DNA from: Candidatus Poseidoniaceae archaeon
Lineage (GTDB): Archaea > Thermoplasmatota > Poseidoniia > Poseidoniales > Poseidoniaceae
Assembly (NCBI GenBank): GCA_028822845.1
Contig: JAPKCS010000004.1
Coordinates: 14,626 to 78,625 of the forward strand
Direction: 5' to 3'
DNA length: 64,000 nt
Shown here: piece by piece, positions 19,288 to 55,003 of the stretch
How positions within the stretch are numbered: position 1 is the first letter of the stretch
Layout: the number at the start of each line of letters is the position of its first letter
Notes under the pieces: generated by a model
Told to the model about the DNA's origin: nothing
The model's input: only the letters and a program-made list of their open reading frames with translations
The model's database searches: none
Made by a program: the position numbers and the translations under genes

Positions 19288-19629
19288 ATGAATCAAGTGG
19301 ATGACATGGTTGTGCAGTTTTCTGCTCCTGAAAAGAGCCAACTAACTGACCGACGGGATGTACGGTTCATTCGAGAAGTTTGGCGCCAAATCACATTTGG
19401 TGTTGGAGCATGGGGAACACTGCGACCCTTGGTAGCGGCCTTGCTTGCAGCAATACCATTCCTGTTTCTCGGACACCACTTCAATCGGCAGCACCGCCGA
19501 GGTTTCGACTGGTTCCTTCTACAAATCCCACTGGCCCTTACGCTGGTCCTTTGGGTTGGACTTTGGTTGTTCTCAATCTATGATGCATGGAGTGCTGCAA
19601 CCAAGGTTGGCACAGATGCTGAAATTTAA
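19288..19629 (+). CDS. Small two-TM membrane protein
   Basis: 113 aa with two hydrophobic helices (LRPLVAALLAAIPFLFLG and IPLALTLVLWVGLWLFSIY). Its stop overlaps the convergent gene's stop. Confidence 0.45.
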   Translation: MNQVDDMVVQFSAPEKSQLTDRRDVRFIREVWRQITFGVGAWGTLRPLVAALLAAIPFLFLGHHFNRQHRRGFDWFLLQIPLALTLVLWVGLWLFSIYDAWSAATKVGTDAEI

Positions 19630-20420
19630 GGACGCCACAACTGGTTCGATGACTCGATGTCGCCACTGAGCAAACCCGTGAGGTCGTCAAGATCATCCTG
19701 ATCAAACTCTGTTGGTAAATCACCCGAGATGAACGAACCAACAGATCGTGATTCGATGGCCCAATACATCACTGAGTTATCGTTGTTGGAGTGGCCTTTG
19801 TTATCGCTGTCTTCATGATCAGCAGGTGAAGTGTAGACGAGGTTCACCAGACCAAGCAGGTGGCCTGCTTCGTGCACGAGAACGCTGTTTTCAACCTCTT
19901 CAGCAGAAGGGCGATTGAAGAAGCCAGCTGCATCATCAACCGAGTCACCAAAGATGGCAATGGTCGAAGCGTCAACTGCCACACCGAGGACATTGTCATC
20001 TTCGTATGTGTTTGCTGGGAAGATGATTTGCCACGTCAGGGTCGAGGACTGACGTGGATCTTGGGCTTTCGAATCCCAACCTTTGTCCCGGACATCTTGT
20101 GCAGTCCATGAGCCCTCATGTCCAAATTCAGTAAGTTCGAACTTTATTTCAACGCCATTTGGCTTGTCACAGACTTGTTCAAGCCGTTCAACCAGCATGT
20201 CTGTGCTGGTTGATTCTGGTTTATATCCGGTCTCATAGTCAATTTCAACCACGAGTTTCGTGTACGTTGTGCCGTCGAGGCATGCCAACGTCAACCCACC
20301 AGGGACTCCTGGTGTTTCGAACAAATCACTGACGGCATCGGAAGCGCCAAAACACCCAGAGAGAGCAGGCATCACCAGCAGTGCAAACAGGGCAAAGCCA
20401 AACGTTTGTTTCCCTCTCAT
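19626..20420 (-). CDS. Secreted lipoprotein-like zinc metalloprotease (metzincin-like)
   Basis: Signal peptide with lipobox-like LSGC (MRGKQTFGFALFALLVMPALSGCFG). HEAGHLLGL zinc motif (about nt 19860-19874), then DHEDSD and a possible Met-turn SVMYW. Confidence 0.6.
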   Translation of the reverse strand: MRGKQTFGFALFALLVMPALSGCFGASDAVSDLFETPGVPGGLTLACLDGTTYTKLVVEIDYETGYKPESTSTDMLVERLEQVCDKPNGVEIKFELTEFGHEGSWTAQDVRDKGWDSKAQDPRQSSTLTWQIIFPANTYEDDNVLGVAVDASTIAIFGDSVDDAAGFFNRPSAEEVENSVLVHEAGHLLGLVNLVYTSPADHEDSDNKGHSNNDNSVMYWAIESRSVGSFISGDLPTEFDQDDLDDLTGLLSGDIESSNQLWRP

Positions 20421-20457
20421 ATCATTGCCTCCAATCCTGACTTTTCAAACCCATGCT

Positions 20458-20910
20458 TTACCAGTCTTCAGGGATGTCAAGTGGGGAGAACAACTGACCG
20501 GGGCCTTGTGCCCGAGCAAGTTGAGACCTCGACAACGCTTCCCATGGTCGCAAAGCCAGCAAGCCTTCTGCAAGCGTGGCTTCAATTTCGACCAATGTCA
20601 CACGAATCAGAGTGGAGAGAATATCCATTCGGTCTTCGTCGATGATTTTGAACACCTTTTCCAAATCAAACGTTGCACTGACATCGCCAGGGGTTCCCTC
20701 TTCGATGGCCCATGGAGCAGTGATACGCTCGCTGAAACTCTGACCAGTCGCCTCAATGTGATCATCGAGCGATCGTGAAAGTCCGGCAATATGACGGCCG
20801 ACTACGAGGCTCACTTCGATGAGGGGCATGCTGAGTTGGTTGATCAAATTGACAACACGCTCTTGCATGGTGACCATGCCTTCGACCGCTTCATCCGAAT
20901 CGCTGCCCAT
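20458..20910 (-). CDS. Hypothetical acidic cytoplasmic protein, 10 nt downstream of the 1807-aa gene
   Basis: 150 aa, no signal peptide or TM, ends in PLDIPEDW. Operon position between the giant surface protein and the metalloprotease. Confidence 0.5.
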   Translation of the reverse strand: MGSDSDEAVEGMVTMQERVVNLINQLSMPLIEVSLVVGRHIAGLSRSLDDHIEATGQSFSERITAPWAIEEGTPGDVSATFDLEKVFKIIDEDRMDILSTLIRVTLVEIEATLAEGLLALRPWEALSRSQLARAQGPGQLFSPLDIPEDW

Positions 20911-20920: not shown

Positions 20921-23900
20921 TCACTTCAACATCGATTCAACGAACTGCCAGCCAAAGTGGTTCCATTGGTCTTGAGTCCATCCATCTGGTAAGCCAGTTG
21001 GGGGGAGTGGTGGTGGTGCACGCTGACCGCTTGGTGCAGTTGCTGGTGCCGCTGTTGGTTGAGGTTCGGGTGCTGTTGCAACAGGAGCCGCCGCTTCGAT
21101 GCTTGGAATCGCCTTGCCAGCGTCCATCTCTTCGATCACATCATCGGTGGCATCAACTGCGCCACCTTCGAGCTCCTGGGTACGAATCCGTCGGTTCATC
21201 ACAAGCATCCACATTGCTAAGGAGAGCGAAACGAGAGCCACAAGGTAGAGAACGATGGCAAAGGTGCTTTCCGCAGCTTGCTGAGCAAGTGCATCAGCGT
21301 CACGTACAGTTTCTCCTTTGACGATGAGTGGGTCGACTGTGCGGCGATCCATTTCGACTTCATCAACGAGAACAAGCATTCGGTATTCGACGGTTTCACC
21401 TTCGCTGACATCAGCAGCGGTGGGCAACTGTGCTTCGGTCATTCCGCCTGCAGAAGCAACGACATCAACGCGTGCAACTTCAGCCCAGAAACCACCTTCG
21501 ACTGCACGTTGGAGAACAAACGCAACATCGCCTTTGCCACCTTGGTTACGTACGGATACATCCAAAGTCACCCCTTCACCTTCCACAGGGGACGGGTTGC
21601 TCCAAGAAAGAATCGAGTCTTCATGACCGAGGTCCATGGACGGACCGACCAGCGCCAATGGCCAAGAAGCGATTGGGGCATCGATGGAATTATCCATGGT
21701 ATCGAATGGGTTGCCTGCTTCATCGGAGCCTGAAACCCATATGTCGACAACGTATGATGGCAACAAAACAGTTGCACCTGCATCGGTCAGATCGAGGTTA
21801 CCTGTCCAGAAGAATTGGTCTCCGAAAGGAGTGGTGTCAGGCAGCGGTACGCTACCACGAGAAATCTCTGCTTCACCAGCACGAACTCTGTAGTGGAGCA
21901 CGGCCGGTTCGTCAAGGTCGAAGCCATAGTCGTCAATTGTCTCCAACATCACGAGTAAATCACCGGCTTCTCCGATGGACAAAGGTGAACCTGACGACAC
22001 CTCGTCCAAAGAAATGGCAGCAATCGTTGGTCGAGTGCTGTCCACAGCAAGGCGGACGCGAGGAATAATCGAAGTCTCATCGAGGGCGATACCAGGCAAG
22101 TCATCCAAATCCAAACGAAGGTCAAGGTGGCCGGACCTCACCGATGGAATCAATAAATCAAGGCTGAATTCACCAGCTTCTCTGGTTGATGTTCGCCAAC
22201 GGTGGTCATAGTCACCAAAAATCACATCAAAAGCGCCTGCTGGTGCAGGTGTTTCATCCTCAGAGAAGAGGACACGTCCACTCACTCGCAACGCTTGTCC
22301 AGCACCGATCAACGTTTCCTTGAATTCTGCGTTGTAGTGGTTGGTACCATCCCGGAGTTCCACGGCACGAATGTGCCCATCCATGGTGTCGAATCTGAAG
22401 TCATTATCGAGGCTCCAAGCATCGTTTCCAAGTCCTTCCTTTGCTTCGAAACAAGGGGTTGTCTCACCGACGTTGCATGGCAAGTCAGTGACTAAGATCT
22501 TGGGAATCACCCGTGATTCACCGTTTGTGTCAAATGATTCAGGGAAGGTCCATGTCAGTTGGAACCTTGCTAAAATCTTGATGATGCTGTTGTTGTCCTC
22601 ATCTAGGGAGACCGAAGAATACAGGTTGGAGACGGCGATGTTATCCGAACCAGAGGTCATCAAAGCCATTGGCTCACCCTGCTCGTTGGCCATGAGCGAA
22701 ATGAACACTGATGTGTCCTCATCTTCGTAATCGCCGCCAAGAGCCAACTGAACATACTGAATGTCTTGCCAACCGTTTCGGTCAGAAAGCACAATTTGAG
22801 CGGAGTAAGGGATCCCGGGATGCAACGCACTGTTGTCATCATGGCCGAGAATGGTGGAGTTATCTAAGTCCAATTCAGGTTGAAATTCAACCCGGATTTT
22901 GTAGGTGCCAAGGTCGTTGTCCCAGTCAGGGGTGGTTTCACCAGGTGCATAGCCGCAAGGTTGGTTGGAATCTGGGCAGACTGGTCCACGTCCCATAGCA
23001 ACAGCGTTGTTTTGGGCATCCTTTCCGGTGACATAGTAGGAGACCAGTTGGCCGTGTTGGAGCATCGAGTCATCGACGAGGCCCTGGAAGATGTTCAAAC
23101 CTCCAGCAATTATTTCTGGAGAAGAAAGCGTCTTGATTTCATATTCGTCTTCATTTGGAAGTCCATCAAAGTTGTAATCGCTGCATCCAATAGCGGTGCT
23201 GGCTTTACATCCAATCCAATAATGCAAGGAAATTTGATTTGGAGGTTCAACTGAATCTTGGATGACGACGCTCAATGATTGACCACCTGGAGCAGGTGGA
23301 CCTGCATGACGCTCTTCGCCATCGCCCGGTGTGGAAGACAAAACAAGAGGAGAGTTTCCATCCAAAATCAACCGCAGTGAGTTGTAACCCGGGTTGACAT
23401 ACGTCGACCCAGCGGGCAGATCGGTTGCAATGACGTAGAACACCATGCCCCCGGGCGATGATTCAAGAGGGGCAGTGAACGACATGTTGTATTCACCAAA
23501 AGCCGGGTTTTGTTCTGTAACAAGCACCACTGGCTCACCCATTGGATCGCCATCATTGGTGACGTTTTGGCCGATGATGGTGAGGTTAAATTGTCCTGCA
23601 GGTGGAGAGATTTGGGAGTTTTGGAAGTGGATGCCTCCAGTGAACGTGAGGTTGAATCCACCCCGTACCCAATCGAGGTTGTACAGTTCACGACCGGTTT
23701 CCTCGTAGACACGGACACCATCGAGTTGAATGTCATTTTCCACAATCAAATCGAGCGATGAGGTTTGCCAAGCCGCTACGGCGAGACCAAGATCATCTTC
23801 GACTGAAATCAGAGCCTCTGTGCCTGCTTCATCGTCCCAACTCCAATCGACCTTCATCGGCATACGAATCGAGACAACACCCAAGGCATCGGTGGTTGAG

Positions 23901-26344
23901 GTGCAGTTTGCGGCATCAAACATCACGATTCCATCGCCATCACTGACAACGGTGCAGACATCGCCACGCTCCCAGCTGAATGCAGGGTTTTCACCGTAGG
24001 AGTTGTTCAAAGCCACCAAGACATCTGTGGCATAATCCACGTCGTCGCCAGGAGCGACACGGGTGATGAGGTTTCGATAGACGCCATCGGGTGCAACAAG
24101 ACCACCTTCGAGTGATGCATCCACTGCGCGTGTTTGCATTTTGTATGCAACATCAATGTTAGAAATTTTGACACGTCCGGAACTTGCTGCCTTTACGGCA
24201 ATTGGAACCAGGACATCACCATCGCCGTTTTCGGGAACAGCATCATTGAAGGCTGCAATCAAGGTTGGTGCAAATTTGACATCAACTGAAACAACCGATT
24301 CATCGCTTGCTTCAACGGCTGATTCATTGAGGAATAAGAGCGACTCCCAGTCCCAAACTTGGTCGTTACCGACATCGAGACGGGGGCGGTCAGGATAGCC
24401 TTCTTCATACTCTAAGAGCATCGAATCAATCGTCGGAGTCAGGCCTGGATCGCTGGTTGACATGCTGATGGCGTACCGCACGGTCGAGCCTGCTTCATCA
24501 GCGGTAAAACTCACTTCTTGGCCATTGACGGCTGGTAACCACGTCGAACCGTTGTCGTTGGAAACTTGAATTTGAAGGGAGGTTCCTGTAGGTTCAGTAG
24601 CCACCCATAGTGGTCGCACTTTGCCGACTTTTGTTCCAGCAGTGAAAGGATCAGAGGTCCATGAACCGGACGCCACATACGATGTGGCCATCTCAACATC
24701 CACCCACCACGACACAGCGGTCGAGCCAATCAGTTGCGCCTTCCAAAGCAAATCGGTTCCCGGATATGCGAAGTGTATGGTTTCGTTCGAGACAACAGAT
24801 TCCCAGTGCGTGCCGTTGTCTGCTGAGATCCAGTAATCCACTCGGTCACCCGTTGAGGCTGCTGACCAGTAAGTTTGCATGTTTGCTGCAACGATGTCTT
24901 GATCCGAGGATGTGACTGGTCCGAACCACGTGGTCGTCCCTGGCGCAGGTGTGGTTTTGTATTGCCACCCTGTTCCGTATTCACGGTAGTAAAGCGTTGA
25001 TGAGGACCAGGTCGAGTACCCACAGTCAACAGTAATGAATCGGTTTCCATCGAATTGGAGGCCGTAACCTAGAGCTGATATCAATCGTGTACCAAGTTGT
25101 GGCACGAGGGAAGTCGAGGAACCTGAGATTGACCATGCTTCGAGTTGATCCTTGTCGTTGCCTGTCGATCCTTGTTGGCACCGCATGAAGAAGGTCGATT
25201 CGTTCACTTCAAGCCCGCGAACTTGTTGTCCTGTTTTACCACATTCAAACGAAGTACCAGAAGAGGAGGAGTACGAGTACATATTGGAACCACGGGTGTA
25301 CTGACCATCAGCCGTTTCTGAAAAGGTGTAGGGCACAATACGACGTTGTGTGTTGTGGACAATCCATACTTCCTCTGACGTCCGATCATAAGCGATGGCG
25401 GTGTAGTCTGAATATTGAGGTGAGACGTCATATGAATCAATGCACGTCCACGTGTCGTCGCGAGAAATATCCAATTCCAACACTCGATGGTATTGAGTTG
25501 GAGCAGAGGAAGTGTAGTGGTAGCGGTAGCCAGACAAAATGGCGAACATGCGTTCATCATCAGTGATTGTCCAGTCACGGAATCCATAACTTCCGTAGTA
25601 AGTGCTTGGGTGGAGGGTGGCGATGGTGCAATCCGCTTGATCAAGGTTGATTGTTGATTCTCGTGTGAGGTTGTTTGGGTAAAGCCGTTGAACAATGTTG
25701 TTGAAGTTAGAAGAACTCCAGGTGGACATGAAGAGCCAATCATGGTGTTGTAAAATGGCGCCCTGTGATTGCTTGGTCAAACTTGTCGCGGTCTTTAGGG
25801 TCTGTTGAGAAAAACGGCTTTCGGTGGCATTGGAAGTGTGAGGTTGACGAAGGGCATAGGAGCCATTGTCCAACCATGCATCAGAATTGACGTCGGTCAC
25901 TTCATCGTAGCCGTGGGGGAAAAACACCTCATCTGTATTGTCAAACGCCAGACTCACATCGCCGCTCCGAGCATCTGCTGATGAGGATTGGCCGAGGATC
26001 CAATCCGAGCGATCATCGTCGACAAGTTGTGACCAACCTGTTGCAGAGGCCCCTGATAGCGTCATCGTCACATCGGTGATTTTGGCACCTCGGGGCAAAG
26101 CCATTTGGGCACCAGCATCAGCGCTGCCACCCTGATAGAGTGCTACATATTCGGTTGTGCCATCGGCAAACTCGTACACGTGGCGAGCGACACCGGATGC
26201 TTCTGCAGGTTCCACGACCACATCTGCGAGAGGGGACAGTGGAGAGAGCACCATAATGGCACAAAGCAGGAACATCACGCCGCGGCCGGATGAAATATTG
26301 TTATCCACAACGTGTCCCTCAAAGACCCACATGCGGCTCAGCAT
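20921..26344 (-). CDS. Giant (1807 aa) C-terminally anchored surface protein with Asp-box motifs and a CARDB-like stalk
   Basis: Uninterrupted 5.4-kb ORF. Hydrophobic N-terminal signal (VMFLLCAIMVLSPLSPLA). Asp-boxes SADNGTHW (nt ~24803-24826) and SNDNGSTW (~24539-24562). CARDB-like VTLDVSVRNQGGKGDVAF. TM FAIVLYLVALVSLSLAMWMLVM, then a Pro/Ala-rich tail. Alternative starts at 26332 or 26275. Confidence 0.75.
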   Translation of the reverse strand: MLSRMWVFEGHVVDNNISSGRGVMFLLCAIMVLSPLSPLADVVVEPAEASGVARHVYEFADGTTEYVALYQGGSADAGAQMALPRGAKITDVTMTLSGASATGWSQLVDDDRSDWILGQSSSADARSGDVSLAFDNTDEVFFPHGYDEVTDVNSDAWLDNGSYALRQPHTSNATESRFSQQTLKTATSLTKQSQGAILQHHDWLFMSTWSSSNFNNIVQRLYPNNLTRESTINLDQADCTIATLHPSTYYGSYGFRDWTITDDERMFAILSGYRYHYTSSAPTQYHRVLELDISRDDTWTCIDSYDVSPQYSDYTAIAYDRTSEEVWIVHNTQRRIVPYTFSETADGQYTRGSNMYSYSSSSGTSFECGKTGQQVRGLEVNESTFFMRCQQGSTGNDKDQLEAWSISGSSTSLVPQLGTRLISALGYGLQFDGNRFITVDCGYSTWSSSTLYYREYGTGWQYKTTPAPGTTTWFGPVTSSDQDIVAANMQTYWSAASTGDRVDYWISADNGTHWESVVSNETIHFAYPGTDLLWKAQLIGSTAVSWWVDVEMATSYVASGSWTSDPFTAGTKVGKVRPLWVATEPTGTSLQIQVSNDNGSTWLPAVNGQEVSFTADEAGSTVRYAISMSTSDPGLTPTIDSMLLEYEEGYPDRPRLDVGNDQVWDWESLLFLNESAVEASDESVVSVDVKFAPTLIAAFNDAVPENGDGDVLVPIAVKAASSGRVKISNIDVAYKMQTRAVDASLEGGLVAPDGVYRNLITRVAPGDDVDYATDVLVALNNSYGENPAFSWERGDVCTVVSDGDGIVMFDAANCTSTTDALGVVSIRMPMKVDWSWDDEAGTEALISVEDDLGLAVAAWQTSSLDLIVENDIQLDGVRVYEETGRELYNLDWVRGGFNLTFTGGIHFQNSQISPPAGQFNLTIIGQNVTNDGDPMGEPVVLVTEQNPAFGEYNMSFTAPLESSPGGMVFYVIATDLPAGSTYVNPGYNSLRLILDGNSPLVLSSTPGDGEERHAGPPAPGGQSLSVVIQDSVEPPNQISLHYWIGCKASTAIGCSDYNFDGLPNEDEYEIKTLSSPEIIAGGLNIFQGLVDDSMLQHGQLVSYYVTGKDAQNNAVAMGRGPVCPDSNQPCGYAPGETTPDWDNDLGTYKIRVEFQPELDLDNSTILGHDDNSALHPGIPYSAQIVLSDRNGWQDIQYVQLALGGDYEDEDTSVFISLMANEQGEPMALMTSGSDNIAVSNLYSSVSLDEDNNSIIKILARFQLTWTFPESFDTNGESRVIPKILVTDLPCNVGETTPCFEAKEGLGNDAWSLDNDFRFDTMDGHIRAVELRDGTNHYNAEFKETLIGAGQALRVSGRVLFSEDETPAPAGAFDVIFGDYDHRWRTSTREAGEFSLDLLIPSVRSGHLDLRLDLDDLPGIALDETSIIPRVRLAVDSTRPTIAAISLDEVSSGSPLSIGEAGDLLVMLETIDDYGFDLDEPAVLHYRVRAGEAEISRGSVPLPDTTPFGDQFFWTGNLDLTDAGATVLLPSYVVDIWVSGSDEAGNPFDTMDNSIDAPIASWPLALVGPSMDLGHEDSILSWSNPSPVEGEGVTLDVSVRNQGGKGDVAFVLQRAVEGGFWAEVARVDVVASAGGMTEAQLPTAADVSEGETVEYRMLVLVDEVEMDRRTVDPLIVKGETVRDADALAQQAAESTFAIVLYLVALVSLSLAMWMLVMNRRIRTQELEGGAVDATDDVIEEMDAGKAIPSIEAAAPVATAPEPQPTAAPATAPSGQRAPPPLPPTGLPDGWTQDQWNHFGWQFVESMLK

Positions 26345-43941: not shown

Positions 43942-43978
43942 AACGGGCACCACTGTTCTAACCGTATTCTCCAGAGAG

Positions 43979-43984
43979 ATATAA
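43979..43984 (-). promoter_or_regulatory. Putative TATA box (TTATAT on the minus strand) for the beta-helix surface-protein gene
   Basis: Lies ~40 nt upstream of the ATG at 43941. This would give a short leader containing the GGTG SD. Confidence 0.3.
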
Positions 43985-44009
43985 CACTGCGCCTCTGTTG
44001 CCACCTTGA

Positions 44010-45383: not shown

Positions 45384-45442
45384 TCAATGTATCGTCGTAC
45401 ACCCTAAATTAGGGGGTGGACGGTATAATGTGTTGTTCTCAA

Positions 45443-48400
45443 TCAGAACCGCTTGGTGTTGCTTCCACCACGGCTCATCTTAACGCCGCCAAAGATGACA
45501 ACGATGATCAGAATGATAATGCCCACTGTGGTCAACCATGTATCGGAATCTTCTGCGGATTCAATGAAGTACTCCACTGAGAAGTCACCATCGGTGATGT
45601 TATCGGAAACGAAAGCGCTGTCTTCACCAGCAACCTCAACGTGGTATTCGAAACGTTGCGATCCTGATGGCATAGCGCCGACTTCAAACACAGCATTGGT
45701 GGTCGAAAGACCAGCGACTGAAATTGTTTGACTTCCATACGAGACGCCAGTCAGTTGGTTGGTGAGGGAAACAATCACGCTGTCAGCGTCAAGGTAGCCA
45801 AAGTTCTCGATTGGAATGCGCACTTCAGTCGATTCGACGTCAGCCGTCTGATCGCTTGCAAGGGTCACGAGACCATCGTTAATCTGACGCAATGAAATCA
45901 TAGCGGGTTTCAAATCCACATCGAACGTATCGGTGTCTTCACCGTTTTCGCTCGTCACAGTCACACTGACGGTCTTGACTGAACCATCCCAGTCACTTGG
46001 TGCAAAGACGGTGAACAGTTGGGGGCGAACTTCGTCCTTATGCAGTTCCGCATTGGATTGCATTGGTGTCACTTCCCAGCCTTCTGGGATGTTATCAGCC
46101 AAACTGATGCTAAAGGTGTCATCTCCGTTTCCATTGTTGGTCAACTTGAATGAGAATTGGCGAGATGAGCCAGCGGCGAGGCCGAGTTCAGTCACTTCAT
46201 CAGAGATTTCGAGGCCATAGGTCTGTGGGACTTGCACATCGATTGAGATTTCACTTGAAGCACCGGTGATGGTGCTCATGCGAACCTTGATCTTGTGGGC
46301 CTCATCGAAGTTGTAGGCTTCGGATTGGTTTGCAACATTCACTCGGACACGGATGGTTCCAGTGGAATCGACGGTGTCGTCGCTAGCGTTTTGTCCAACA
46401 CCGAGGTCCAAATCATACGAATCAACCCAAGCGGTACCATTGAAGAATTCAACGGACCATAGGTTGCTGTCCTGAACGGCGCCAATTGATCCTTCCACGG
46501 TGAACACATCGTTGACCTCTGTGCCTTCGTAAGCAACATCAAGGTCAAACTCGATGGTTTCGTAAGCCTCTCCGACGGGTGTAGCCATCAAACTGGTTTC
46601 ATCACCCTCAACGAGTGTTGCGTTGGTAACAGTTCCAGCAGACATAACCACCGTACTCTCAGAATTGATGGTACGTGTGAACATCATGTCCACGGGGGAT
46701 CGACCCTCACCAACAGATGTTTTACCGCCTGCAATGTATTCCATGTCAAGCAAGTCATCGTGTTGGATGGTCATGAACGTTGAGTCAAAGTCGACATCGC
46801 CGGTTGGTACAAGGATACTGAGTGTACCCTCTTCCGACAACGGCATGTCCCATGCACTGTCGCCGATTGAAACGGTAATGGTAACGCTGCCGTTCAATTT
46901 CTCAGCGCCATCTGAGCCAGCACCTGCGTGGTGGGAGCCCAAGGCGAAGTCAGTCCATTCAGTGGTGAGGTCAACCCAGCCACCGAGCTTCATTTCGAGA
47001 TCGAGTGCAGCCCCGTTAGCGATGGTTGCATCGAGCAAACCAACAGCGACACCGCCGCCGTTTTCATCTGGATTGGCTTGCGTCACAACGACGATCCATT
47101 CACCTGGAGCGATATCTGAACTCCATGTGAGGACATCGTTTGCGAACACTGCGTTGATGCTGATTGGGTCACGCACGCCATCGAGGGTCGGGTAGAGAAC
47201 GATTGTAGCGTTGACGAGGCGAGATGCATCTTTGATATCTGTCACGTTACCAGAGACTGCAACATTTCCTGCAAGGACTTCGAGGTCGTGGGATTCTGGG
47301 TTGTTTTCCACAGGGTAAGCGCTGGAATTGCTCAAGTTGTATGATTCATTTCCAAAGCCTTCCTTGCCCACTGACACTGTGTAATTGTCGTGGACTGGGA
47401 CAAACAAGGACCAGACACCGGAAGCGTCAGTGGTCACGTTCGTGTCAACATCGGTTAAGGTTCCAAGCACCACAACGAGAACGTCCTCGACACCTTCTGT
47501 CATTCCAGGGGTGTCATCTTCGTTCAAGTCCCAGTAAATCTTTCCACCGATCTCCACTTCCAAATCAGCCGTAACGATGCCCAAGTCAAGGGCTCCATCA
47601 GTAGCGTCAAGGGTGGTGAAGGAGGCATCAGAGGTATCCATGGACCAGTGGCGTTGTGGAGCCGATTCATTGAGGAAAAGGCTCCATGTGCCCGGCATCA
47701 TTGACTCTGTGACCATACCGGTGTCGTTTGACTTGGTAAGGGTCACATTGCCAAAGCCATCGTGACTCACAGCGGTAACACGCACATTTGACATGTTGTT
47801 GTTGCTGTCTGTCTCTTGCAATTGGAAGGTCACTTCGACCGTTTCAATGGTGCTGTAGGTCAATCCGGTCCTGACCGTTGAATTTGTACCAACGGTAAGA
47901 GGAGCACGAAGAACTTCCGTGGCGTTCTCGTTGGCGATGAATGGAGCAACGATGCTCACCCAGTCACCAGCAGAAACGTAGCCATGGAACGAGCCGTTTG
48001 TGTCGCTTTCAATGTTGTACCACAAATCCTGTTCTGCTTCATAGAGAAGGAACTGCTTCTCAATGGCATCACCGGAAGCGTTTGTGAGGGTACCAGTGAC
48101 AAGGTATTCGTTGCGCAATGGCATGTCCATGGTCTCGTCAATGGTGTCCAAACCAATAATGATTGGTTGAAGAGCCGTGACGCCGCCAAGGGCGAAATCG
48201 CTAGCGTTCTCTTGACCTGGTTCAGTGTAGTTGAACTGAACTGCATAGGTACCAGGTTCCAGCGAAATGGTGATGACACCAGGCGACGTATAGTTGTCAG
48301 CTGTGTAATTCATTTGCACGCCGTGGTTGTTGAGTGGTACAGCAGAGAATGAAGGGCTGACAAGTGTGCCGTTCTCGAACGAGGCATCTGCGCCTGCGTC

Positions 48401-51400
48401 CATGAAGAACTGGAGCGTCACATTCTGGTGGGCTGGGTTGGCAAAGAGTTCAATCGGAGAGGGCGGTGAACCGCTTTCTCCATCGATGTTGAAATTCTCA
48501 ACTGGTTCGATGTTCAAATCGCTGTCAATAGCGCTGAAGTCCCATTCACCATCAAGGAGGAAGAAGTTGAACTCGCCACCGGAGGTGATCTCAGTTCGCC
48601 ATTCCAAACCATCTTCATTGGTTGCAACCAAGGTTTGTGCAGACCATCCCGGGACCAGGTTGTCCCAGAGTGAAGTGTTTTCATAGAGGAACACAAAGCC
48701 GTTTGTTGCGGTCGCTGGTGCAAGGTACATGATGCCCATGGCCATTTCATTCTGCCCGTCAAGTGTGATCAATTGACCACCCGTGTAGGTCGAGAAGATA
48801 CTGATGGTGGTCATGTGGAAGTCTTGCCCGTTTGGCAAGCGCATGCTGTAGTTGCCGTCAGCATCTGTCACCGTGCTGAAGGAAAGGTCACCGGATGTGA
48901 AATCAATGGTGAGTGCGGAAGCAGCGTCGCTTTCAGTCAACTTGTTTTCATCAGTTCCTTGAACCCACAATGCATAATTATTTGCATCGATGACGGTGCG
49001 GATGCTCCCATTCACCCATGTAGCGATTGCATAAGTTCCATCGATGTTCAGGTCTTCTTCTTCTAAGAGGAAGTAGTTGAACAAGACATAGTTGTCATCC
49101 AAATCATCAGAAACCGTGTAAGCGCCCATTGGTAATTCAATGTACACCACGCCGTTCTCATCAGAGGTAGCGGTAATTGGAGCCATGAGTGAATCATCGT
49201 TGGTGAAGGTCACGACACGGTCGTTGATTGAAATCATCGAAGTTTGCGTCTCTGGATTGGTTGGAGACACAAGTTGCATGGTCACGTCGTGCATTTCAGG
49301 AACCGCCATCAACATCGAGAAGTTTTCTGAATCATCACGAACGGTGAAACTGTCGTTGACTTCATACCATCCATCGTTGTCAATGTCCACTCGGTAGAAG
49401 TAGTCTCCAGGGGCAAGAGGCCCGTACGAGAAGGTACCGTTTTCGTCGGTGATGATGTCAACTGCGAATTCTTCGCCGAGGCCTTCATCGACCAATTCAA
49501 TGGTTTCGTTTGCAAAGATGATGCTGAAGAAGTCTTCCAGTGTGTCTTCGAAGATGGAACCCGGCATTGACATTTCCAGATCATAGGTTGGAGTGATGCC
49601 AATATCAACTGGGCGAGGAAGGAGCACTTCTTTTCCGTTGTCCAATTGAGCAATCATGTTGTACATGCCCGGGACAAGTCCAGTGAGGTAGAAGGAACCG
49701 GGTTGAACCATGGATCCCGAAAAGTGACCTTGACCGATGAACAAGCCAGTGCCGTTGAGCGTTCCTGTTCCTTCAAAGGAACCAGTTGCTTCCAACGTAG
49801 CGTTGATCACTTCAGTGACCAGGGTCGAAACGCCTTGAGACGTCAAACGACCGTTGGCTGTGATTTCTCCATCGAGCAGGTAAGTCGTGAGTGCGCCAGT
49901 GCTGTCCTTGACACAGATGGATTCGTTGGTCGGCATCGAAGTCGTGTCGTTTTCGACATAACAATCAACGATGCTTTCGTTTGAAATCCAGCTAGCCTCG
50001 AGTGTACCAACACCGTTCCATGTACCATTGCTGGTGTAGGTTCGCTTGTCGGCGATTGAACGAGTAAAGGTTCCAGTGAAGTCCTGAGCAAAGGCGACAC
50101 CTTCGCTTTCGAAGGTTCCGTTTTCGGTGAATGTTACTTCACCGGTTCCTTGGAGGATTCGACTGTCTTCAGAAGTGAAGGACCCGTTGGTTGTTGTGAG
50201 GGTGTAGTTTTCTGTCATCGACCAAATGCTACGGAGCACAAAGGTGGTGTCAACAAGGGGATCACCGTTGAAAGATTCTGCACCTGTCCATGAAACAAGA
50301 CCGGAAACACCACTGCTCTTGACAGCGATGTCCATAGCCTCTGTGGCGGCTGCATCGTCAGCACGGTCTGCTTGTTCAGCAGTTACGTTCAGTTGGGTCT
50401 CGCCCAACCATGTCATGTTCGCAACTTCACCGAGAATAGCTGTGATGTCGTTCACATAACGATCTTCGTTGGTTTCGGTGAGGATGTCAGCAAGACCGTC
50501 CACAAAGGAACCTGTTCGTACGCTGTCGCGAGCGTTCGTTGGATCGTATTCACCAGCAAAGGCTGAGACACGGATTCGGCCTGCAGGAGCATCAAAGCTC
50601 CACTTGCCATCTTCATCAGCATCAACGAAGCCGATTGGAATCCAATAGGTGTCTCCGTCGAGGTCTTCTGTACCTTCACCAGAGAAGGCGTCACGCTCAA
50701 TGAGCAGACGAACACCGGACAAACCTTGTCCGTTGTCGCTCATGGATACCTGACCTGAAACTTCAGCACCAGAGTAGTACTTGAGGATCTTCACGTAGGT
50801 GTTGGTTTGGCCAATACTAGCGTTCGCATCTTCATTGTACCAGTTGCTGATTACAAAGTGATTCGACATGGCGCCAGGAAGTGGAAGAGCTTGGCTCAAT
50901 GCACTACCAGGGCTGCCTTGTTGGCCAAAGTGCTGTGCAGGTTGGGGATTGGAAGAACCGGAATCGATACCGAGCGTTGAAGCGCCGTAACCAACGTAGG
51001 TGTTGGCGAGCATGGTGTTGAAGAACGCAGGGTTATGGTCGACACGAACATCTTGAACTTGCAATGGGTCAATTTCTGCACCAGCTTGCTGATTGAGGAA
51101 ATCCTCGGTGATGGCTGCATCGACTTCTTCTCGAGTCATTTCATCTTGGAATTCGCCACGGGTGGTTTCGTAGACTTCATCCATGAATGTGCTAATGTCT
51201 TGTCCACTGAGGATTGTAGGAGCTCCGAAGATTCCCATTGGCTGGCCACGGTTGTAGCCTGCATCTGCAGTGTACCGTCCAGCCTTGGGGTAGAGTCGGC
51301 TGTCAATAGCAAAGTAACGGATTTCGTGATCACGCTCGACCATCTCACCAGGAGCGCCGTAGTAATCTTGTACGGAATAGTAGTCTTCCATGTTGATCAG

Positions 51401-54400
51401 TTCATCATAGAAGTCGACAATTTGTCCGTCGTCCAGTGTGTTACCAATGAATTGCACAGTCAAGGCCAAACGAGCATTCACCCGGTGGATGTTGGTGGAG
51501 ACTGAGTCGTATTCTTCGACAAGGTCCTCGGTGTACCAGTAATCGTTGATGATGTAATGCGTTGTCTCATCGGATGAGTCTTGAGCGGAACGAATGTTGT
51601 TGGTGAACGTGCGCTCTGCTTCTGAAAGTTCAGTCCAATCGCTGCCTTGGCAAGTCACTGAAAGCACGTCTGTGCATTCAATTTGAACCGAATCCTTGTA
51701 GATCCTGTAAACCATGGTTGAACTGTCAAATGCACCGTCGACCTGATGGTATCCTTCTGCCATGACGACGTCTCGGTTGGTCTTGATGACCTTGAAACTG
51801 CTTTCAACCAAAAGGGTCTTCATATCCTCTTTGTCATCGTCTGTGTTAATGGTGACGAAATCATCAAATTGAGCCTGTGTGAAGTGGTTATCGGCGATAT
51901 TCGAGAATCCATCAGTGAATTCATAGTTACCTGTGTTGGCATTTTGGTAGGCAATGTCGCCTTGACCTAATTGCCAAATGAACATGGAGATGAGGTCTTC
52001 TTGAGATTGTGCTAAGAGCATGTTCCCAGTTGCAGGAATACCGGATTGGAAGTTGTCCGAAACGGATGGATGCTCACCTTGGCTGAGTGCTTGGAAACCG
52101 TAGTCCCACCATGATACAAACGCAGGACGTTCCGAATATTGTTCATCGGTGTCCTGATCGGCGAGCCAAGAATAAGCGGCGTTCCAACTGTTATCGTTGA
52201 AACCAGAGCCCATGGAGCCGAGGTACCAGTTGCCGTCGTAGGCGCTGTCATCAAGCAAAGAGAATCCAGCAATTTCGAAACGAAGTGCGTCAGGGATGAG
52301 GTTGAAGATTGTTTCATCAAGTTCTTCTTCTGCTGACACCGTGGATGGAATTGCTGCATCCAATCCGTAGGTCGCTTGTTGTCCAAAGAGCATGATCATC
52401 ACAAGAATGATCGCTGAGAAGTTAGGTGTGCGCCACAATGCTTTGCGAGCGCCGCGAATGCGGTCTTCTGGAGATCGGATTCCGAACTTTTTCCAGGTAC
52501 GAACCATTCCGCTCCAATTGCCCCACTTCCACAATGAAACGATGCCCCATGCGCCAAGGATAGCGATGGCAGGTGTTGCGTTGAACATGAACCGAGCTGC
52601 TGTCCAAGCCATGTAGGAAGCGACAAGGATCCAAACACCGAAGATGAGGTTTGTGTGCTTGCGTTCTCGGAGGCCGGAAATGAGGCAAAGAAGACCCATA
52701 ACCAACGATAAGAGGAAGGTGATTGGTCCGAACTGTGCGAAGAGTTGTCCTCTGTCGCTTGCATTTGCTTCGGCAACCGTTCCGAAAATCTTCGTCTTGG
52801 TGAAGTAACCGCCGCCAGTGAACAAGACGTCCCAGGCGTTGGAGATGTCAGCGAACTTCAAGGCGTAGAGCAAAGAGAAGAACACGGCACTTCCGACACC
52901 AAGGACACCAAGAACCAGCAACCAAGGTTTGTCTCGGAAGCCAATGGTGACAAAGGCAATGGCCAAAGTGAAGATGGCGATGAACAAGAACGGCTGAAGG
53001 CCAGTTCCGTCAAGCACGAGGTTTAGTTGAGGGTGCCCGTAGAACGGCAATGCCATCAAGAAATTGACCGCAAGCATGGTGATGAAGAGCACGCTCAATG
53101 TTGTCGAATCCCTTCGGCGGAACATGTTCAATGCAACTTGCAATGCATAAGCAAGGAACAAGATCGATGGCCCAACGACGAACCCTTTCCAGCCAAGGGA
53201 AACCACACCGAATGAAACACCGGCGAGCACTGCATACGAAAGAGCGGCAGTGCGTTGGTTGGCAACCGCAGAGAAGGATTGCATGTAGGTCGACAACGAG
53301 GGAGTCGTGGTGCGGAGAAGACGGTCGCTACCGGCATACTTGGCTGCTTTGAGCCAGAACATGAAGCCCATTGTCAAGAAGAGCATGATGAAGGCATCGT
53401 GATCTGCAAGAGCGAAGGTGGTGTGAGATACGTGTGCTGGCATGAAGGCCAGGAGCCAAGCAGCAACGACTGCTGCTTTCTCGTTGACATGCTCACGGGC
53501 GATGGCGGCGACCGGTAGGATGGTCAAAGCGCCATAGACAGAAGGCAACACGAGGATGGACCACCAGACTGCAGAGTCAGCGCCAACGAATGGTTTGAGG
53601 ATCATAGCAAGCAAAGCGATCGACCACGTGAACAATGGTGGACGAGGATTGATGCCACCAACTGGGTAGAATCGGTCGGAGTCAACAATCATGTGAGCGT
53701 TGTTCGCCAAAATGTAGTCGACAACTCGCTTCATGTACCAAGGGTCAGAACCACCGGTCATGTCCCAGGTGTTGGTTCCGAGGGAGTTCATCGAAGGGAG
53801 CACATACCATAGGTTTCGGATAACGAAACCAAAGAAGAAGGCCATACCAATCATGATGCTGGCCCAGTGTGCGTTCCAGAATTGACGAGCACCGGATGGC
53901 TCGAATTCACTGCGGTTGGACCAACCGCCCCATTTCTCACCTGTGGAAATCACGTAAATGATTGCACAGATGAAGAAGGTAAAGGCCAACCAAATTAGTG
54001 CGCCCCAACTGCCTTCAAAGGCTTCGTTTTGGATCATGCCAGCCTCATACCAAGCCGAAACGAGGTAAAGGACCCACATTGAACCGATGAGCATGGAACG
54101 AGTGTACCAGCGTTCTGAAGCCATGCCGGCAACGATCAAAGCAACCATTCCAGTGAAGAATGCGCTCCAGAAACCGAAGTAACCATGGTATGCTGCGAGT
54201 TCAGGATACTGACTGACTGCTTGACCACTGAATGGGCCAAAGACGTTGAACATGAGCTGGTCATCGTTCATGAGGTAATTGAAATGCCACAAGCTTCCGA
54301 TGTGAGCCAGTGCCCAAACACCCAGTCCAATTTGGAGGGGGAGAGTCGAGCGGTTCCATGACCCGTTACCATCGGTAATGTGGCTGAACCAGCCTTTCTC

Positions 54401-55003
54401 AGAGGATGGCGAAAGAACGCCACGGGCGAGAACTGCTCCAAGAAGACCAAGGATGGTGAAGAGCATAGCATAGCTGAAGAATTGGTAACCAACAGCCCCA
54501 CGGTACGCATCCAAGACGCCGATTGAAACACCGGTGGACATGGTCAGTGTGGTGGAGAGGTTTGCAGCCATATTTTCAGCGGCCACGAATCCGAGCTGGA
54601 CACCGATGGCAGCAAAAATCAACACGTTTGCCCATTCGAACGAACGGCGCATGTGAAGGGTGTGAATTCCAAACATGACCACGAAGAACAGCAGAGCGCT
54701 GACCGCTCCGAGTTCTGCCATGTAGACCAATTCGGCACCGACAATAGCAACGCCCAGTGAAACGAGAGAGAGGGTGGAGGCTGCAAGAGTGATGGTGCCG
54801 TTGGCGTGAAGCACGCGAGGTGCGAGACCAAGCGATGCTGCCGCAAGGACGACAAGCATTGGTGTCAGGTTTTCAAAGTTGAGATCGAAGGACAAGCCAA
54901 CAATCTGTGTCGCTGCGAGCGCTAGAAGCACTGCTAGGGGGGCAATAAGCCAACCAAGCATAGGTGCTGGCGCTGGGCGCGGTTCGGGGTTTTTCGTTTC
55001 CAT
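45443..55003 (-). CDS. aglB: Giant (3186 aa) AglB/STT3-family oligosaccharyltransferase with an extra N-terminal polytopic segment, a ~2100-aa C-terminal ectodomain and a terminal TM anchor
   Basis: GGSDPWYMKR (res ~417-426), ALADHDAF (~532-539), TVAE (~742-745) and WWDYG (res 965-969, nt 52097-52111, checked against the DNA). About 375 hydrophobic residues precede the canonical first TM. Downstream there are carboxypeptidase-regulatory-like and CARDB-like modules (FKLTNNGNGDDTFSISL, IPIENFGYLDADSVIVSL). The final TM is TVGIIILIIVVIFGGV. Confidence 0.8.
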   Translation of the reverse strand: METKNPEPRPAPAPMLGWLIAPLAVLLALAATQIVGLSFDLNFENLTPMLVVLAAASLGLAPRVLHANGTITLAASTLSLVSLGVAIVGAELVYMAELGAVSALLFFVVMFGIHTLHMRRSFEWANVLIFAAIGVQLGFVAAENMAANLSTTLTMSTGVSIGVLDAYRGAVGYQFFSYAMLFTILGLLGAVLARGVLSPSSEKGWFSHITDGNGSWNRSTLPLQIGLGVWALAHIGSLWHFNYLMNDDQLMFNVFGPFSGQAVSQYPELAAYHGYFGFWSAFFTGMVALIVAGMASERWYTRSMLIGSMWVLYLVSAWYEAGMIQNEAFEGSWGALIWLAFTFFICAIIYVISTGEKWGGWSNRSEFEPSGARQFWNAHWASIMIGMAFFFGFVIRNLWYVLPSMNSLGTNTWDMTGGSDPWYMKRVVDYILANNAHMIVDSDRFYPVGGINPRPPLFTWSIALLAMILKPFVGADSAVWWSILVLPSVYGALTILPVAAIAREHVNEKAAVVAAWLLAFMPAHVSHTTFALADHDAFIMLFLTMGFMFWLKAAKYAGSDRLLRTTTPSLSTYMQSFSAVANQRTAALSYAVLAGVSFGVVSLGWKGFVVGPSILFLAYALQVALNMFRRRDSTTLSVLFITMLAVNFLMALPFYGHPQLNLVLDGTGLQPFLFIAIFTLAIAFVTIGFRDKPWLLVLGVLGVGSAVFFSLLYALKFADISNAWDVLFTGGGYFTKTKIFGTVAEANASDRGQLFAQFGPITFLLSLVMGLLCLISGLRERKHTNLIFGVWILVASYMAWTAARFMFNATPAIAILGAWGIVSLWKWGNWSGMVRTWKKFGIRSPEDRIRGARKALWRTPNFSAIILVMIMLFGQQATYGLDAAIPSTVSAEEELDETIFNLIPDALRFEIAGFSLLDDSAYDGNWYLGSMGSGFNDNSWNAAYSWLADQDTDEQYSERPAFVSWWDYGFQALSQGEHPSVSDNFQSGIPATGNMLLAQSQEDLISMFIWQLGQGDIAYQNANTGNYEFTDGFSNIADNHFTQAQFDDFVTINTDDDKEDMKTLLVESSFKVIKTNRDVVMAEGYHQVDGAFDSSTMVYRIYKDSVQIECTDVLSVTCQGSDWTELSEAERTFTNNIRSAQDSSDETTHYIINDYWYTEDLVEEYDSVSTNIHRVNARLALTVQFIGNTLDDGQIVDFYDELINMEDYYSVQDYYGAPGEMVERDHEIRYFAIDSRLYPKAGRYTADAGYNRGQPMGIFGAPTILSGQDISTFMDEVYETTRGEFQDEMTREEVDAAITEDFLNQQAGAEIDPLQVQDVRVDHNPAFFNTMLANTYVGYGASTLGIDSGSSNPQPAQHFGQQGSPGSALSQALPLPGAMSNHFVISNWYNEDANASIGQTNTYVKILKYYSGAEVSGQVSMSDNGQGLSGVRLLIERDAFSGEGTEDLDGDTYWIPIGFVDADEDGKWSFDAPAGRIRVSAFAGEYDPTNARDSVRTGSFVDGLADILTETNEDRYVNDITAILGEVANMTWLGETQLNVTAEQADRADDAAATEAMDIAVKSSGVSGLVSWTGAESFNGDPLVDTTFVLRSIWSMTENYTLTTTNGSFTSEDSRILQGTGEVTFTENGTFESEGVAFAQDFTGTFTRSIADKRTYTSNGTWNGVGTLEASWISNESIVDCYVENDTTSMPTNESICVKDSTGALTTYLLDGEITANGRLTSQGVSTLVTEVINATLEATGSFEGTGTLNGTGLFIGQGHFSGSMVQPGSFYLTGLVPGMYNMIAQLDNGKEVLLPRPVDIGITPTYDLEMSMPGSIFEDTLEDFFSIIFANETIELVDEGLGEEFAVDIITDENGTFSYGPLAPGDYFYRVDIDNDGWYEVNDSFTVRDDSENFSMLMAVPEMHDVTMQLVSPTNPETQTSMISINDRVVTFTNDDSLMAPITATSDENGVVYIELPMGAYTVSDDLDDNYVLFNYFLLEEEDLNIDGTYAIATWVNGSIRTVIDANNYALWVQGTDENKLTESDAASALTIDFTSGDLSFSTVTDADGNYSMRLPNGQDFHMTTISIFSTYTGGQLITLDGQNEMAMGIMYLAPATATNGFVFLYENTSLWDNLVPGWSAQTLVATNEDGLEWRTEITSGGEFNFFLLDGEWDFSAIDSDLNIEPVENFNIDGESGSPPSPIELFANPAHQNVTLQFFMDAGADASFENGTLVSPSFSAVPLNNHGVQMNYTADNYTSPGVITISLEPGTYAVQFNYTEPGQENASDFALGGVTALQPIIIGLDTIDETMDMPLRNEYLVTGTLTNASGDAIEKQFLLYEAEQDLWYNIESDTNGSFHGYVSAGDWVSIVAPFIANENATEVLRAPLTVGTNSTVRTGLTYSTIETVEVTFQLQETDSNNNMSNVRVTAVSHDGFGNVTLTKSNDTGMVTESMMPGTWSLFLNESAPQRHWSMDTSDASFTTLDATDGALDLGIVTADLEVEIGGKIYWDLNEDDTPGMTEGVEDVLVVVLGTLTDVDTNVTTDASGVWSLFVPVHDNYTVSVGKEGFGNESYNLSNSSAYPVENNPESHDLEVLAGNVAVSGNVTDIKDASRLVNATIVLYPTLDGVRDPISINAVFANDVLTWSSDIAPGEWIVVVTQANPDENGGGVAVGLLDATIANGAALDLEMKLGGWVDLTTEWTDFALGSHHAGAGSDGAEKLNGSVTITVSIGDSAWDMPLSEEGTLSILVPTGDVDFDSTFMTIQHDDLLDMEYIAGGKTSVGEGRSPVDMMFTRTINSESTVVMSAGTVTNATLVEGDETSLMATPVGEAYETIEFDLDVAYEGTEVNDVFTVEGSIGAVQDSNLWSVEFFNGTAWVDSYDLDLGVGQNASDDTVDSTGTIRVRVNVANQSEAYNFDEAHKIKVRMSTITGASSEISIDVQVPQTYGLEISDEVTELGLAAGSSRQFSFKLTNNGNGDDTFSISLADNIPEGWEVTPMQSNAELHKDEVRPQLFTVFAPSDWDGSVKTVSVTVTSENGEDTDTFDVDLKPAMISLRQINDGLVTLASDQTADVESTEVRIPIENFGYLDADSVIVSLTNQLTGVSYGSQTISVAGLSTTNAVFEVGAMPSGSQRFEYHVEVAGEDSAFVSDNITDGDFSVEYFIESAEDSDTWLTTVGIIILIIVVIFGGVKMSRGGSNTKRF

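Follow-up and report, generated by a model that had tools for sequence, protein, structure and literature searches.

An Envelope-Rich Stretch of Conserved Gene Order in Poseidoniales, with Giant Surface Proteins, a Giant AglB Fusion, and a Pilin-Like Operon

A 64-kb window of a Candidatus Poseidoniaceae genome (contig JAPKCS010000004.1), to which all positions given here refer, contains a run of giant surface proteins, extracytoplasmic proteases, pilin-like proteins, the oligosaccharyltransferase (OST) AglB, and a STAND-type regulator candidate between positions 19626 and 55003. A first-pass annotation of the window had described this run as a cell-envelope island and proposed that it encodes one dedicated surface-structure or attachment system. 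The gene set is a conserved feature of the whole order Poseidoniales that appears to be undescribed, and we place about even confidence in the reading that the stretch is an envelope-rich part of a vertically inherited, unusually collinear core genome, composed of several modules and not forming a single machine. A single dedicated attachment system is neither shown nor excluded. Together the genes most likely build and maintain a glycoprotein surface layer with adhesive potential, and their adjacency is explained as much by a low rate of rearrangement as by joint function. The most notable items are a giant AglB fusion that is itself rich in N-glycosylation sequons, a pilin-like operon restricted to the order, the pairing of a beta-helix giant with the STAND gene, and an element upstream of the gene for a thrombospondin type 3 (TSP3)-repeat giant.

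A six-frame listing of open reading frames (ORFs), combined with Pfam and NCBIfam scans of the 64-kb window, reproduced the earlier gene map exactly; every gene, strand, and gap listed there lies where it had been placed. The features are summarized in Table 1.

Table 1. Features of the stretch and its neighbours in the window (aa, amino acids; MBL, metallo-beta-lactamase; TM, transmembrane)
Feature	Position	Strand	Remarks
DnaJ, o327, GT2, o222, pyroglutamyl-peptidase/NUDIX fusion, orf113	14299..19629	mixed	left neighbours
Lipoprotein with zincin HExxH motif	19626..20420	-	264 aa; the "metzincin" of the first-pass annotation
Acidic protein, cytoplasmic	20458..20910	-	150 aa; no family match
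G1807, type-I membrane giant	20921..26344	-	1,807 aa; signal peptide, C-terminal TM, Pro/Trp-rich cytoplasmic tail
TSP3-repeat giant, secreted, calcium-binding	26379..32132	-	1,917 aa from the ATG used by orthologues
Conserved noncoding element	32184..32219	-	36 nt; ends in TATA-like CTCATAAG
Promoter-like block TTCAAAG	32323..32347	+	about 30-40 nt upstream of MBL start; divergent-region alignment, 17 lineages
MBL-fold hydrolase, cytoplasmic	32368..33195	+	Lactamase_B and Lactamase_B_2, E = 2e-14; first gene of operon
Pilin-like protein, 361 aa	33236..34321	+	class III signal peptide ...RNERA|VSEVLGVV...; TM 34-52
Pilin-like protein, 743 aa, large beta body	34318..36549	+	ATGA overlap with upstream gene
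Third pilin-like protein, 156 aa	36546..37016	+	start GTG 36546, GTGA overlap with 743-aa gene; TM 17-35
HTH-AAA_16-TPR (MalT-like STAND) regulator candidate	37022..39577	-	ends 5 nt from end of pilin-like operon
Beta-helix/Big_7 type-I membrane giant	39607..44004	-	1,465 aa; Beta_helix E = 2.7e-12, Big_7 E = 2.5e-10; TM 1370-1388
S8 subtilase, membrane-anchored	44154..45383	-	409 aa; Peptidase_S8 E = 9e-38; N-terminal TM 65-83
TATA-like CATTATAC/CATTAAAT	45423..45430	-	directly past AglB stop, about 40-47 nt upstream of S8 start; 8 MGIIa lineages aligned
Giant AglB	45443..55003	-	3,186 aa; extra N-terminal TM region of about 400 aa, STT3 core, beta-sandwich array of about 2,150 aa, C-terminal TM
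AglB leader	55028..55080	-	TATA-like CATTAAAAGAGG (55069-55080) and inverted repeat (55028-55045), beyond the end of the stretch as first delimited
PurD (-), CarS (+), CARDB surface protein (+)	55188..59002	mixed	right neighbours, collinear like the stretch

Gene Order across the Poseidoniales

Each GTDB species was represented by one genome when relatives of the 743-aa pilin-like protein were sought, and 250 genomes held one. Gene order was read in the best 80 of these 250, all of which belong to the Poseidoniaceae (Marine Group IIa, MGIIa), and in a set of divergent loci: L085 and L086 from the Thalassarchaeaceae, on the MGIIb side; L087 and L088, of low GC content; L090, of high GC content; L172, L173, and L174; and L091, on a long-read contig. 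Searches with pieces of the MGIIb AglB and of the giant G1807 gave short fragments, one of which in each case led to useful loci. The order G1807-TSP3 giant / MBL hydrolase-three pilin-like genes / STAND-beta-helix giant-S8 subtilase-AglB was present in every long-enough locus of the 80, and it recurred in the divergent loci (L085-L088, L090, L091, and L172-L174), in which the 743-aa protein is only 30-37% identical and GC content ranges from 0.34 to 0.67. In all, about 90 loci of sufficient length show this order, including MGIIb loci whose pilin-like protein is 31% identical. A homologue of the 743-aa protein, 79% identical, is encoded in the Iverson MG-II chromosome (CM001443.1), and the homologues of this protein assign the window's organism to the Poseidoniaceae. 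The split between Poseidoniaceae and Thalassarchaeaceae has been dated near 1.1 Ga (PMC10877094). In the comparison of neighbourhoods that the first-pass annotation had proposed as a check, the orthologues are not scattered, and their order is identical in both families.

The collinearity, however, does not end with the stretch. On its right, a metagenome scan centred on PurD found the order CARDB589-CarS-PurD-AglB in every one of the 37 loci that span 11 kb or more, which come from both families, and beyond CARDB589 three more genes stand in an order shared by MGIIa and MGIIb. On its left, the MGIIb-like locus L172 keeps the genes from G1807 to DnaJ in order (acidic protein-orf113-peptidase/NUDIX-o222-GT2-o327-DnaJ), and the same end of distant MGIIa loci still has orf113 and the peptidase-NUDIX gene. 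Some 30 genes, many of them housekeeping genes, are equally kept in order, and the genes of the stretch are not conserved in arrangement beyond their surroundings. Nor does the stretch carry the marks of a horizontally acquired island: GC content is flat along the whole window (about 0.51, range 0.49-0.55), the window contains no tRNA gene, relatives occur in 250 species genomes, and the set occupied the same place in 80 of the 80 loci fetched. The window is 96% coding. A CDP-archaeol synthase, an archaeosine-type domain, and an archaeal S13/S15 protein, all encoded in the flanks, mark the organism as archaeal. With collinearity running on through both flanks and a flat GC content, the notion of a discrete island was not borne out.

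The neighbourhood test is not decisive, because at this evolutionary distance the housekeeping genes to either side are just as collinear, and in Poseidoniales conservation of neighbourhood cannot separate functional linkage from a low rate of rearrangement. A stricter account would be pure phylogenetic inertia, under which unrelated modules remain adjacent through the rarity of rearrangement, a few very long genes offering few break points. It would explain why collinearity extends through DnaJ, GT2, peptidase-NUDIX, PurD, CarS, and more in both families, why the only changes seen around the locus are insertions, deletions, and the inversion of a single gene (CarS), and why 35 kb hold just 12 genes with 11 junctions. 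Yet giants, pilin-like proteins, two extracytoplasmic proteases, and an oligosaccharyltransferase are densely concentrated even by the standard of this envelope-rich window, and coupling within modules is clear; we regard inertia by itself as possible but rather doubtful.

Several points also weigh against our preferred reading, that of a collinear, envelope-rich core genome composed of modules. Collinearity was examined around this locus only, which does not by itself establish the stability of whole genomes, and selection could itself explain why about 30 genes have stayed together since the split near 1.1 Ga. The envelope theme is unusually dense, with about 16 of the 35 window genes envelope-related. 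The promoters described below are predictions from phylogenetic footprinting. Neither an assembly ATPase nor a TadC/FlaJ platform gene was found among the window genes or in the gene tables of related loci, nor was a prepilin peptidase seen, which leaves the assembly of the pilin-like proteins conjectural.

The flanks provided several observations of their own. A break in synteny to the right of CARDB589 was considered and rejected, as comparison at the ORF level shows an insertion at 59012-63377 in the window's lineage. This lineage-specific insertion holds PKD262, an ABA4-like gene, o830 (sequon-rich and anchored, 830 aa), and o140; other MGIIa genera have o179 immediately after CARDB589. 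The CDP-archaeol synthase gene CarS (56512-57246, plus strand) is inverted between the families, as seen from the window, L091, and L094-L130, being divergent from PurD in MGIIa and codirectional with PurD and AglB in MGIIb-like loci. A pyroglutamyl peptidase (C15) and a NUDIX hydrolase are fused in a 356-aa protein (18173-19243, minus strand) whose gene adjoins the stretch in both families. The small two-TM protein orf113 (19288-19629, plus strand), whose gene overlaps the end of the lipoprotein gene by 4 nt, is 52-65% conserved between the two families, more strongly than the lipoprotein itself. Proteins with signal peptides or anchors are also encoded outside the stretch (o826, o682, o742, CARDB589, PKD262, and o830).

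Spacing, Conserved Noncoding Elements, and Coupled Genes

The genes had been described as tightly packed operons in three long transcription units. The gaps are as reported, with a median of 34 nt, but this is barely tighter than the median of 51 nt outside the stretch, where unrelated neighbours such as S15/o311 and DnaJ/o327/GT2 lie 51-60 nt apart; tight spacing is the norm here. On the minus strand, the TSP3 gene is separated from the G1807 gene by 34 nt, the latter from the acidic protein gene by 10 nt, and this from the lipoprotein gene by 37 nt. The divergent gap between the TSP3 and MBL genes is 235 nt. AglB and S8 are 59 nt apart, S8 and the beta-helix gene 149 nt, and the beta-helix and STAND genes 29-59 nt in the window; in MGIIb the last two overlap by 4 nt. 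On the plus strand, the MBL gene is followed after 40 nt by the 361-aa pilin-like gene.

Evidence on cotranscription comes from the conserved TATA-like elements before S8 and AglB and from the overlaps and Shine-Dalgarno (SD) sequences of the MBL-pilin-like operon. A four-gene extent of this operon is supported by the TTCAAAG block, the internal SD sequence, and the start/stop overlaps. The 361-aa gene is preceded at 9-14 nt by a conserved SD-like AGGTGA, as is typical of an operon-internal gene, and orthologues of the third pilin-like gene, which encode 155-158 aa, retain the same GTGA overlap. The position of the TTCAAAG block would fit a leaderless or short-leader transcript. The unit that was to run from AglB to the STAND gene probably comprises at least three transcripts, because AglB and S8 have conserved TATA-like elements of their own. 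The element just past the AglB stop codon suggests that S8 has its own promoter. The AglB leader is kept in 25 distinct loci of both families, in which the SD sequence is also conserved. Its inverted repeat (18 nt, GACAGC..GCTGTC) is retained in most lineages and 87% paired; a hairpin was considered and rejected, as there is no covariation above controls and there are no compensatory changes.

The 36-nt element upstream of the TSP3 gene is nearly identical in nucleotide sequence among about 75 distinct loci, whose GC contents span 0.34-0.67. Its terminal CTCATAAG keeps a constant distance upstream of the TSP3 start codon: 84-88 nt, or 78 nt in MGIIb-like loci. An SD-like GGTGA lies downstream of the element. 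It is present as a single copy in the window, with no consistent second site in 2.7 Mb of loci. Two candidate explanations were discarded. An N-terminal extension or small ORF does not agree with a first codon that varies and with the stops and frameshifts that follow, and a structured RNA in the leader was rejected on the basis of RNAalifold, which predicted no pairs, and the lack of any Rfam match. Because of its fixed distance, single occurrence, and lack of RNA structure, the element is probably a promoter together with a factor-binding site.

No cis motif common to the units was found. TT[GC]AA[AG]-like boxes were noted by eye about 25-40 nt before the starts of MBL, ArcTGT, o742, DnaJ, the lipoprotein, G1807, STAND, and other genes, which suggests a lineage-typical TATA variant with leaderless transcripts. 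A scan for sigma-70 promoters and terminators gave results at chance level; that model does not apply to archaea.

Coupling is well supported within three modules only: the MBL hydrolase with the pilin-like genes, the beta-helix giant with the STAND gene, and the TSP3 giant with G1807 and the acidic protein.

Proteins of the Modules

The identification of the large gene at the right end as AglB is correct in that it encodes an STT3 enzyme (PF02516, E = 3.4e-13) with the catalytic motif WWDYG at residue 965. It is not an ordinary AglB, the solved enzyme having 875 aa and no extra domains, but a 3,186-aa fusion with a sequon-rich extracellular array and an anchor. A. fulgidus AglB (PDB 3WAJ) aligns to residues 401-815 only (E = 8.8e-10), the match to TIGR04154 (E = 8.5e-49, 166 bits) falls below the family cut-off of 450, and CarboxypepD_reg is detected at E = 3.6e-11. 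Orthologues of 3,146-3,246 aa occur in every lineage. Of the 56 N-x-S/T sequons in the protein, 46 fall within residues 1001-3150, double what composition would predict (z = +6.3). The strongest sequon enrichment is that of this array and of two proteins encoded outside the stretch, o830 and o826; the beta-helix giant shows none. Because sequon-rich proteins are encoded outside the stretch as well, AglB looks like the general oligosaccharyltransferase of the cell.

The three pilin-like proteins each carry a class III signal peptide motif and an N-terminal TM segment. Their matches to curated pilin families are all subthreshold: DUF7289 reaches 23.4 and 21.9 bits (cut-off 27) and Pilin_N 19.8 bits (cut-off 25.2), the 361-aa protein matching these families at E = 5e-5 and E = 0.0015, respectively, and the third protein matches no curated pilin family. 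An AlphaFold2 (AF2) model of the 743-aa protein (pLDDT 88.7, pTM 0.86) consists of a single N-terminal helix (residues 9-69) and, after it, a large body made up entirely of beta structure. Taken with the N-terminal motifs and TM segments of all three proteins, this gives the helix-then-beta architecture of pilins. Nothing like the model was found in the PDB, where matches did not exceed the level of generic beta-sandwich noise (TM-score of at most 0.13). The family is small: when 1.84 billion representatives were searched exhaustively with a profile, it came to only 135 clusters at the 50% identity level, of which about 13 are full length, and the members that carry an organism name are labelled Poseidoniales or a broader archaeal taxon, with one exception. 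That exception, L045 (NZEQ01000036.1), is an archaeal locus deposited under a metagenome-assembled genome named "Verrucomicrobiales bacterium," which is probably a binning error.

The MBL hydrolase that precedes these genes carries an HHHGDH motif and matches only generic MBL families in Pfam and NCBIfam; every lineage encodes it, L090 among them, although the gene caller had overlooked it there. In bacterial ComG/ComEC systems an MBL-fold nuclease stands beside a short pilus. By analogy, the constant union of an MBL hydrolase with three pilin-like genes in every lineage might denote a DNA-uptake or other pseudopilus device, with an MBL nuclease and a short pilus, that has nothing to do with the giants. 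No membrane channel, ATPase, or DNA-binding domain is present, however; the generic nature of the MBL matches and a 743-aa subunit far larger than pseudopilins speak against it too, and we consider it very improbable.

The TSP3 giant contains 25 DxDxDG calcium motifs, matches PF18884 at threshold (25.3 bits, cut-off 25), and has an N-terminal signal and no anchor; its orthologues measure 1,900-1,917 aa in every lineage. G1807, with TM segments at residues 26-44 and 1697-1715, matches no Pfam or NCBIfam family. It was found in most lineages, MGIIb included (42%), and is cleanly missing from one MGIIa clade (L075, L077-L079, L082, and L083), where the acidic protein gene abuts the TSP3 gene. A stretch of its tail, LPDGWTQDQW, loosely resembles tail motifs of the beta-helix giant. 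The acidic protein has no TM segment, no family match, and no PDB match by profile, and a single-sequence AF2 model of it (pLDDT 55) was unusable; it is kept at 47-52% in distant MGIIa loci and at 38-53% in L172, always directly downstream of the giants.

The zincin lipoprotein had been called a metzincin. It is a lipoprotein with an HExxH motif: six of six orthologues have the lipobox LSGC and HE.GH without variation. Its assignment to the metzincins rested on HExxH alone. The motif reads HE.GHLLGLVN and departs from the metzincin HExxHxxGxxH, the position of the third zinc-binding His being an invariant Asn in the six orthologues, and the match to Pfam M10 (E = 0.0085, 16.4 bits) is below the cut-off of 24. 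At the position checked for a Met-turn, 29 residues downstream of the second motif His, the orthologues share an invariant SVMYW. A profile of the six sequences found no PDB relative, and there was no NCBIfam match. In the MGIIb-like locus L172 the gene is missing and an unrelated 184-aa ORF adjoins orf113. G1807 and the zincin lipoprotein are thus dispensable.

The STAND protein combines a P-loop NTPase of the AAA_16/STAND type (E = 1.2e-9, 39.4 bits, cut-off 32.6) with a repeat sensor, matching TPR_12 (E = 3e-23) and TPR_MalT (E = 1e-11, 45.1 bits, cut-off 45). Its helix-turn-helix (HTH) domain is a weak match (HTH_Crp_2, E = 4.2e-4, 20.7 bits, cut-off 27). Its gene is the best conserved of the stretch, at 68-92% in MGIIa and 51-58% in MGIIb-like loci. 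A STAND NTPase in the company of proteases and an MBL nuclease could call to mind a defence island, and PADLOC did return weak matches (a generic TPR model, PDC-S27/S73 at E of about 4e-4, and a generic subtilase model). These, however, reflect generic domain similarity, the predicted effector of the STAND protein is an HTH and not a nuclease or protease, and the locus is core and invariant with a flat GC content; we attach practically no credence to a role in defence.

The cytoplasmic tail of the neighbouring beta-helix giant contains the motifs EDPYAWAK and HPGW[LIR]WD-x5-WVPDP (coded in 39607-39900), kept in both MGIIa and MGIIb across loci L005-L086. A conserved tail encoded beside a regulator with a TPR sensor is suggestive of a signalling link. 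After their signal peptides, the beta-helix giant (43800-43940) and CARDB589 (57233-57500) share a stretch containing ..VTGTETW.. with 32-43% identity in several loci. The S8 protein is a subtilase: PF00082 covers profile positions 1-288 of 288, and the triad motifs DTG, HGT, and GTS are readable. Its best NCBIfam match is mycosin, which at 101 bits against a cut-off of 278.75 does not make it one, and the window contains no type VII secretion system genes around it.

The original proposal of one dedicated attachment or surface apparatus can be restated in the light of these proteins. The giants would be its cargo, S8 and the zincin lipoprotein would process them, AglB would glycosylate them, the three pilin-like proteins would form a stalk, and the STAND protein would regulate the whole, perhaps sensing the tails of the giants through its TPR. 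Every part concerns the envelope, and the genes are adjacent without exception; the STAND gene, which is conserved best, abuts the beta-helix gene and even overlaps it in MGIIb; the beta-helix tail motifs persist across families; and the pilin-like family is limited to Poseidoniales. Archaeal activators usually bind upstream of the TATA-like box, which is where the unique conserved element of the TSP3 gene lies. What survives of the proposal is the coherent envelope theme and the coupling within three modules. The step to a single system is opposed by flanks of unrelated function that are equally collinear, by the separate promoter-like elements before AglB and S8 and the lack of a shared cis motif among the units, by the loss of G1807 and the lipoprotein in some lineages without loss of the rest, by the general character of AglB, with sequon-rich proteins also encoded outside the stretch, and by the absence of an assembly ATPase or platform gene from the window. 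We judge a single apparatus of this kind unlikely.

Comparison with Known Systems and a Model of the Stretch

MalT-type STAND regulators share with the protein described here an AAA_16 NTPase with Walker A (GIAGIGKTT), a MalT-like TPR region after it, and, in the present protein putatively, a DNA-binding domain. In the present case, though, the HTH is N-terminal and weak (E = 4e-4), and the MalT equivalog scores 45.6 against a cut-off of 537 bits. The bacterial LapA/LapG/LapD system consists of a giant calcium-binding adhesin and a dedicated protease under inside-out signalling. The stretch resembles it only in the way it might work, with a surface giant of calcium-binding repeats, an extracytoplasmic protease nearby, and a cytoplasmic signalling protein; there is no homology to LapG or LapD and there are no type I secretion genes, the envelope is archaeal, and the proteases are of other families.

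Archaeal type IV pilus loci (PMC4858521) are similar in their cotranscribed genes for class III signal peptide proteins with a long N-terminal helix and a beta domain, in adhesin-like giants, and in a regulator nearby. Here, by contrast, no ATPase or TadC/FlaJ platform is encoded in the window or the fetched loci, Pfam pilin matches are subthreshold, one subunit has 743 aa and no PDB relative, and the family is limited to Poseidoniales; the census of type IV pili in that study does not include this arrangement. The agl neighbourhoods of Haloferax and Methanococcus (PMC2952790, PMC6098224) likewise place an STT3/AglB with WWDYG among sequon-bearing anchored surface proteins, and the NCBIfam model best matched here is the archaeosortase-A-associated oligosaccharyltransferase. 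The differences are that no glycosyltransferase or flippase genes are adjacent (the sole GT2 glycosyltransferase gene lies outside the stretch at 16.5 kb) and that the enzyme, of 3,186 aa here, is enlarged throughout the order by additional TM segments at its N terminus and by a fused extracellular array of 2,150 aa with an anchor.

Surveys of MGII treat "thrombospondin" genes, along with those of the archaellum, as adhesion traits (PMC6461757), and the TSP3 giant is presumably one of the "thrombospondin" genes so scored. They score the presence of genes only and do not describe the fixed neighbourhood, the giant AglB, or the pilin-like operon. An oligosaccharyltransferase and a subtilase have been reported among active genes, with oligosaccharyltransferase transcripts more abundant when an MGIIb genus was active (PMC9723583). 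The first-pass annotation had not recognized the arrangement as a described system, and in agreement with this we found no description of the locus, nor of AglB together with MGII, in the searchable literature.

We propose the following model for the modules. AglB, expressed from a predicted promoter of its own, would carry out general N-glycosylation, and its fused array may form part of the glycoprotein coat. S8, which probably has its own promoter, may trim or shed surface proteins. The beta-helix giant is anchored in the membrane, its conserved tail perhaps connected with the MalT-like regulator encoded next to it; the adjacency of the two genes, with translational coupling in MGIIb, is observed, the regulation conjectural. 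The products of the MBL operon would be cut by a prepilin peptidase encoded elsewhere and then either be anchored by their N-terminal helices or build a short fibre or stalk; the pilin-like operon and fold are evident from the data, and we infer the assembly. The secreted TSP3 giant would be expressed from the promoter with the uniquely conserved upstream element, followed by the anchored giant, the acidic protein, and, in some lineages, the zincin lipoprotein. A more elaborate, Poseidoniales-specific surface apparatus with outside-in control can be imagined, in which the pilin-like triad is a membrane-anchored stalk that holds the anchorless TSP3 giant, the tails of the membrane giants signal to the TPR of the STAND protein, the latter acts on the TSP3 element, and the AglB array is a self-glycosylating part of the coat; we think this improbable.

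No archaea are more abundant in the surface ocean than the Poseidoniales, which have yet to be cultured, and their envelope and particle attachment are known from gene counts only. The comparison presented here reveals a fixed envelope set in every lineage sampled: three giants, an oligosaccharyltransferase fusion of about 3,200 aa, an order-specific pilin-like operon, a membrane subtilase, and a putative STAND regulator. In this order, where the surroundings are just as collinear, neighbourhood conservation alone is unfit for inferring functional systems. The conserved promoter elements and the gene set are concrete targets for metatranscriptomic, metaproteomic, and structural work.

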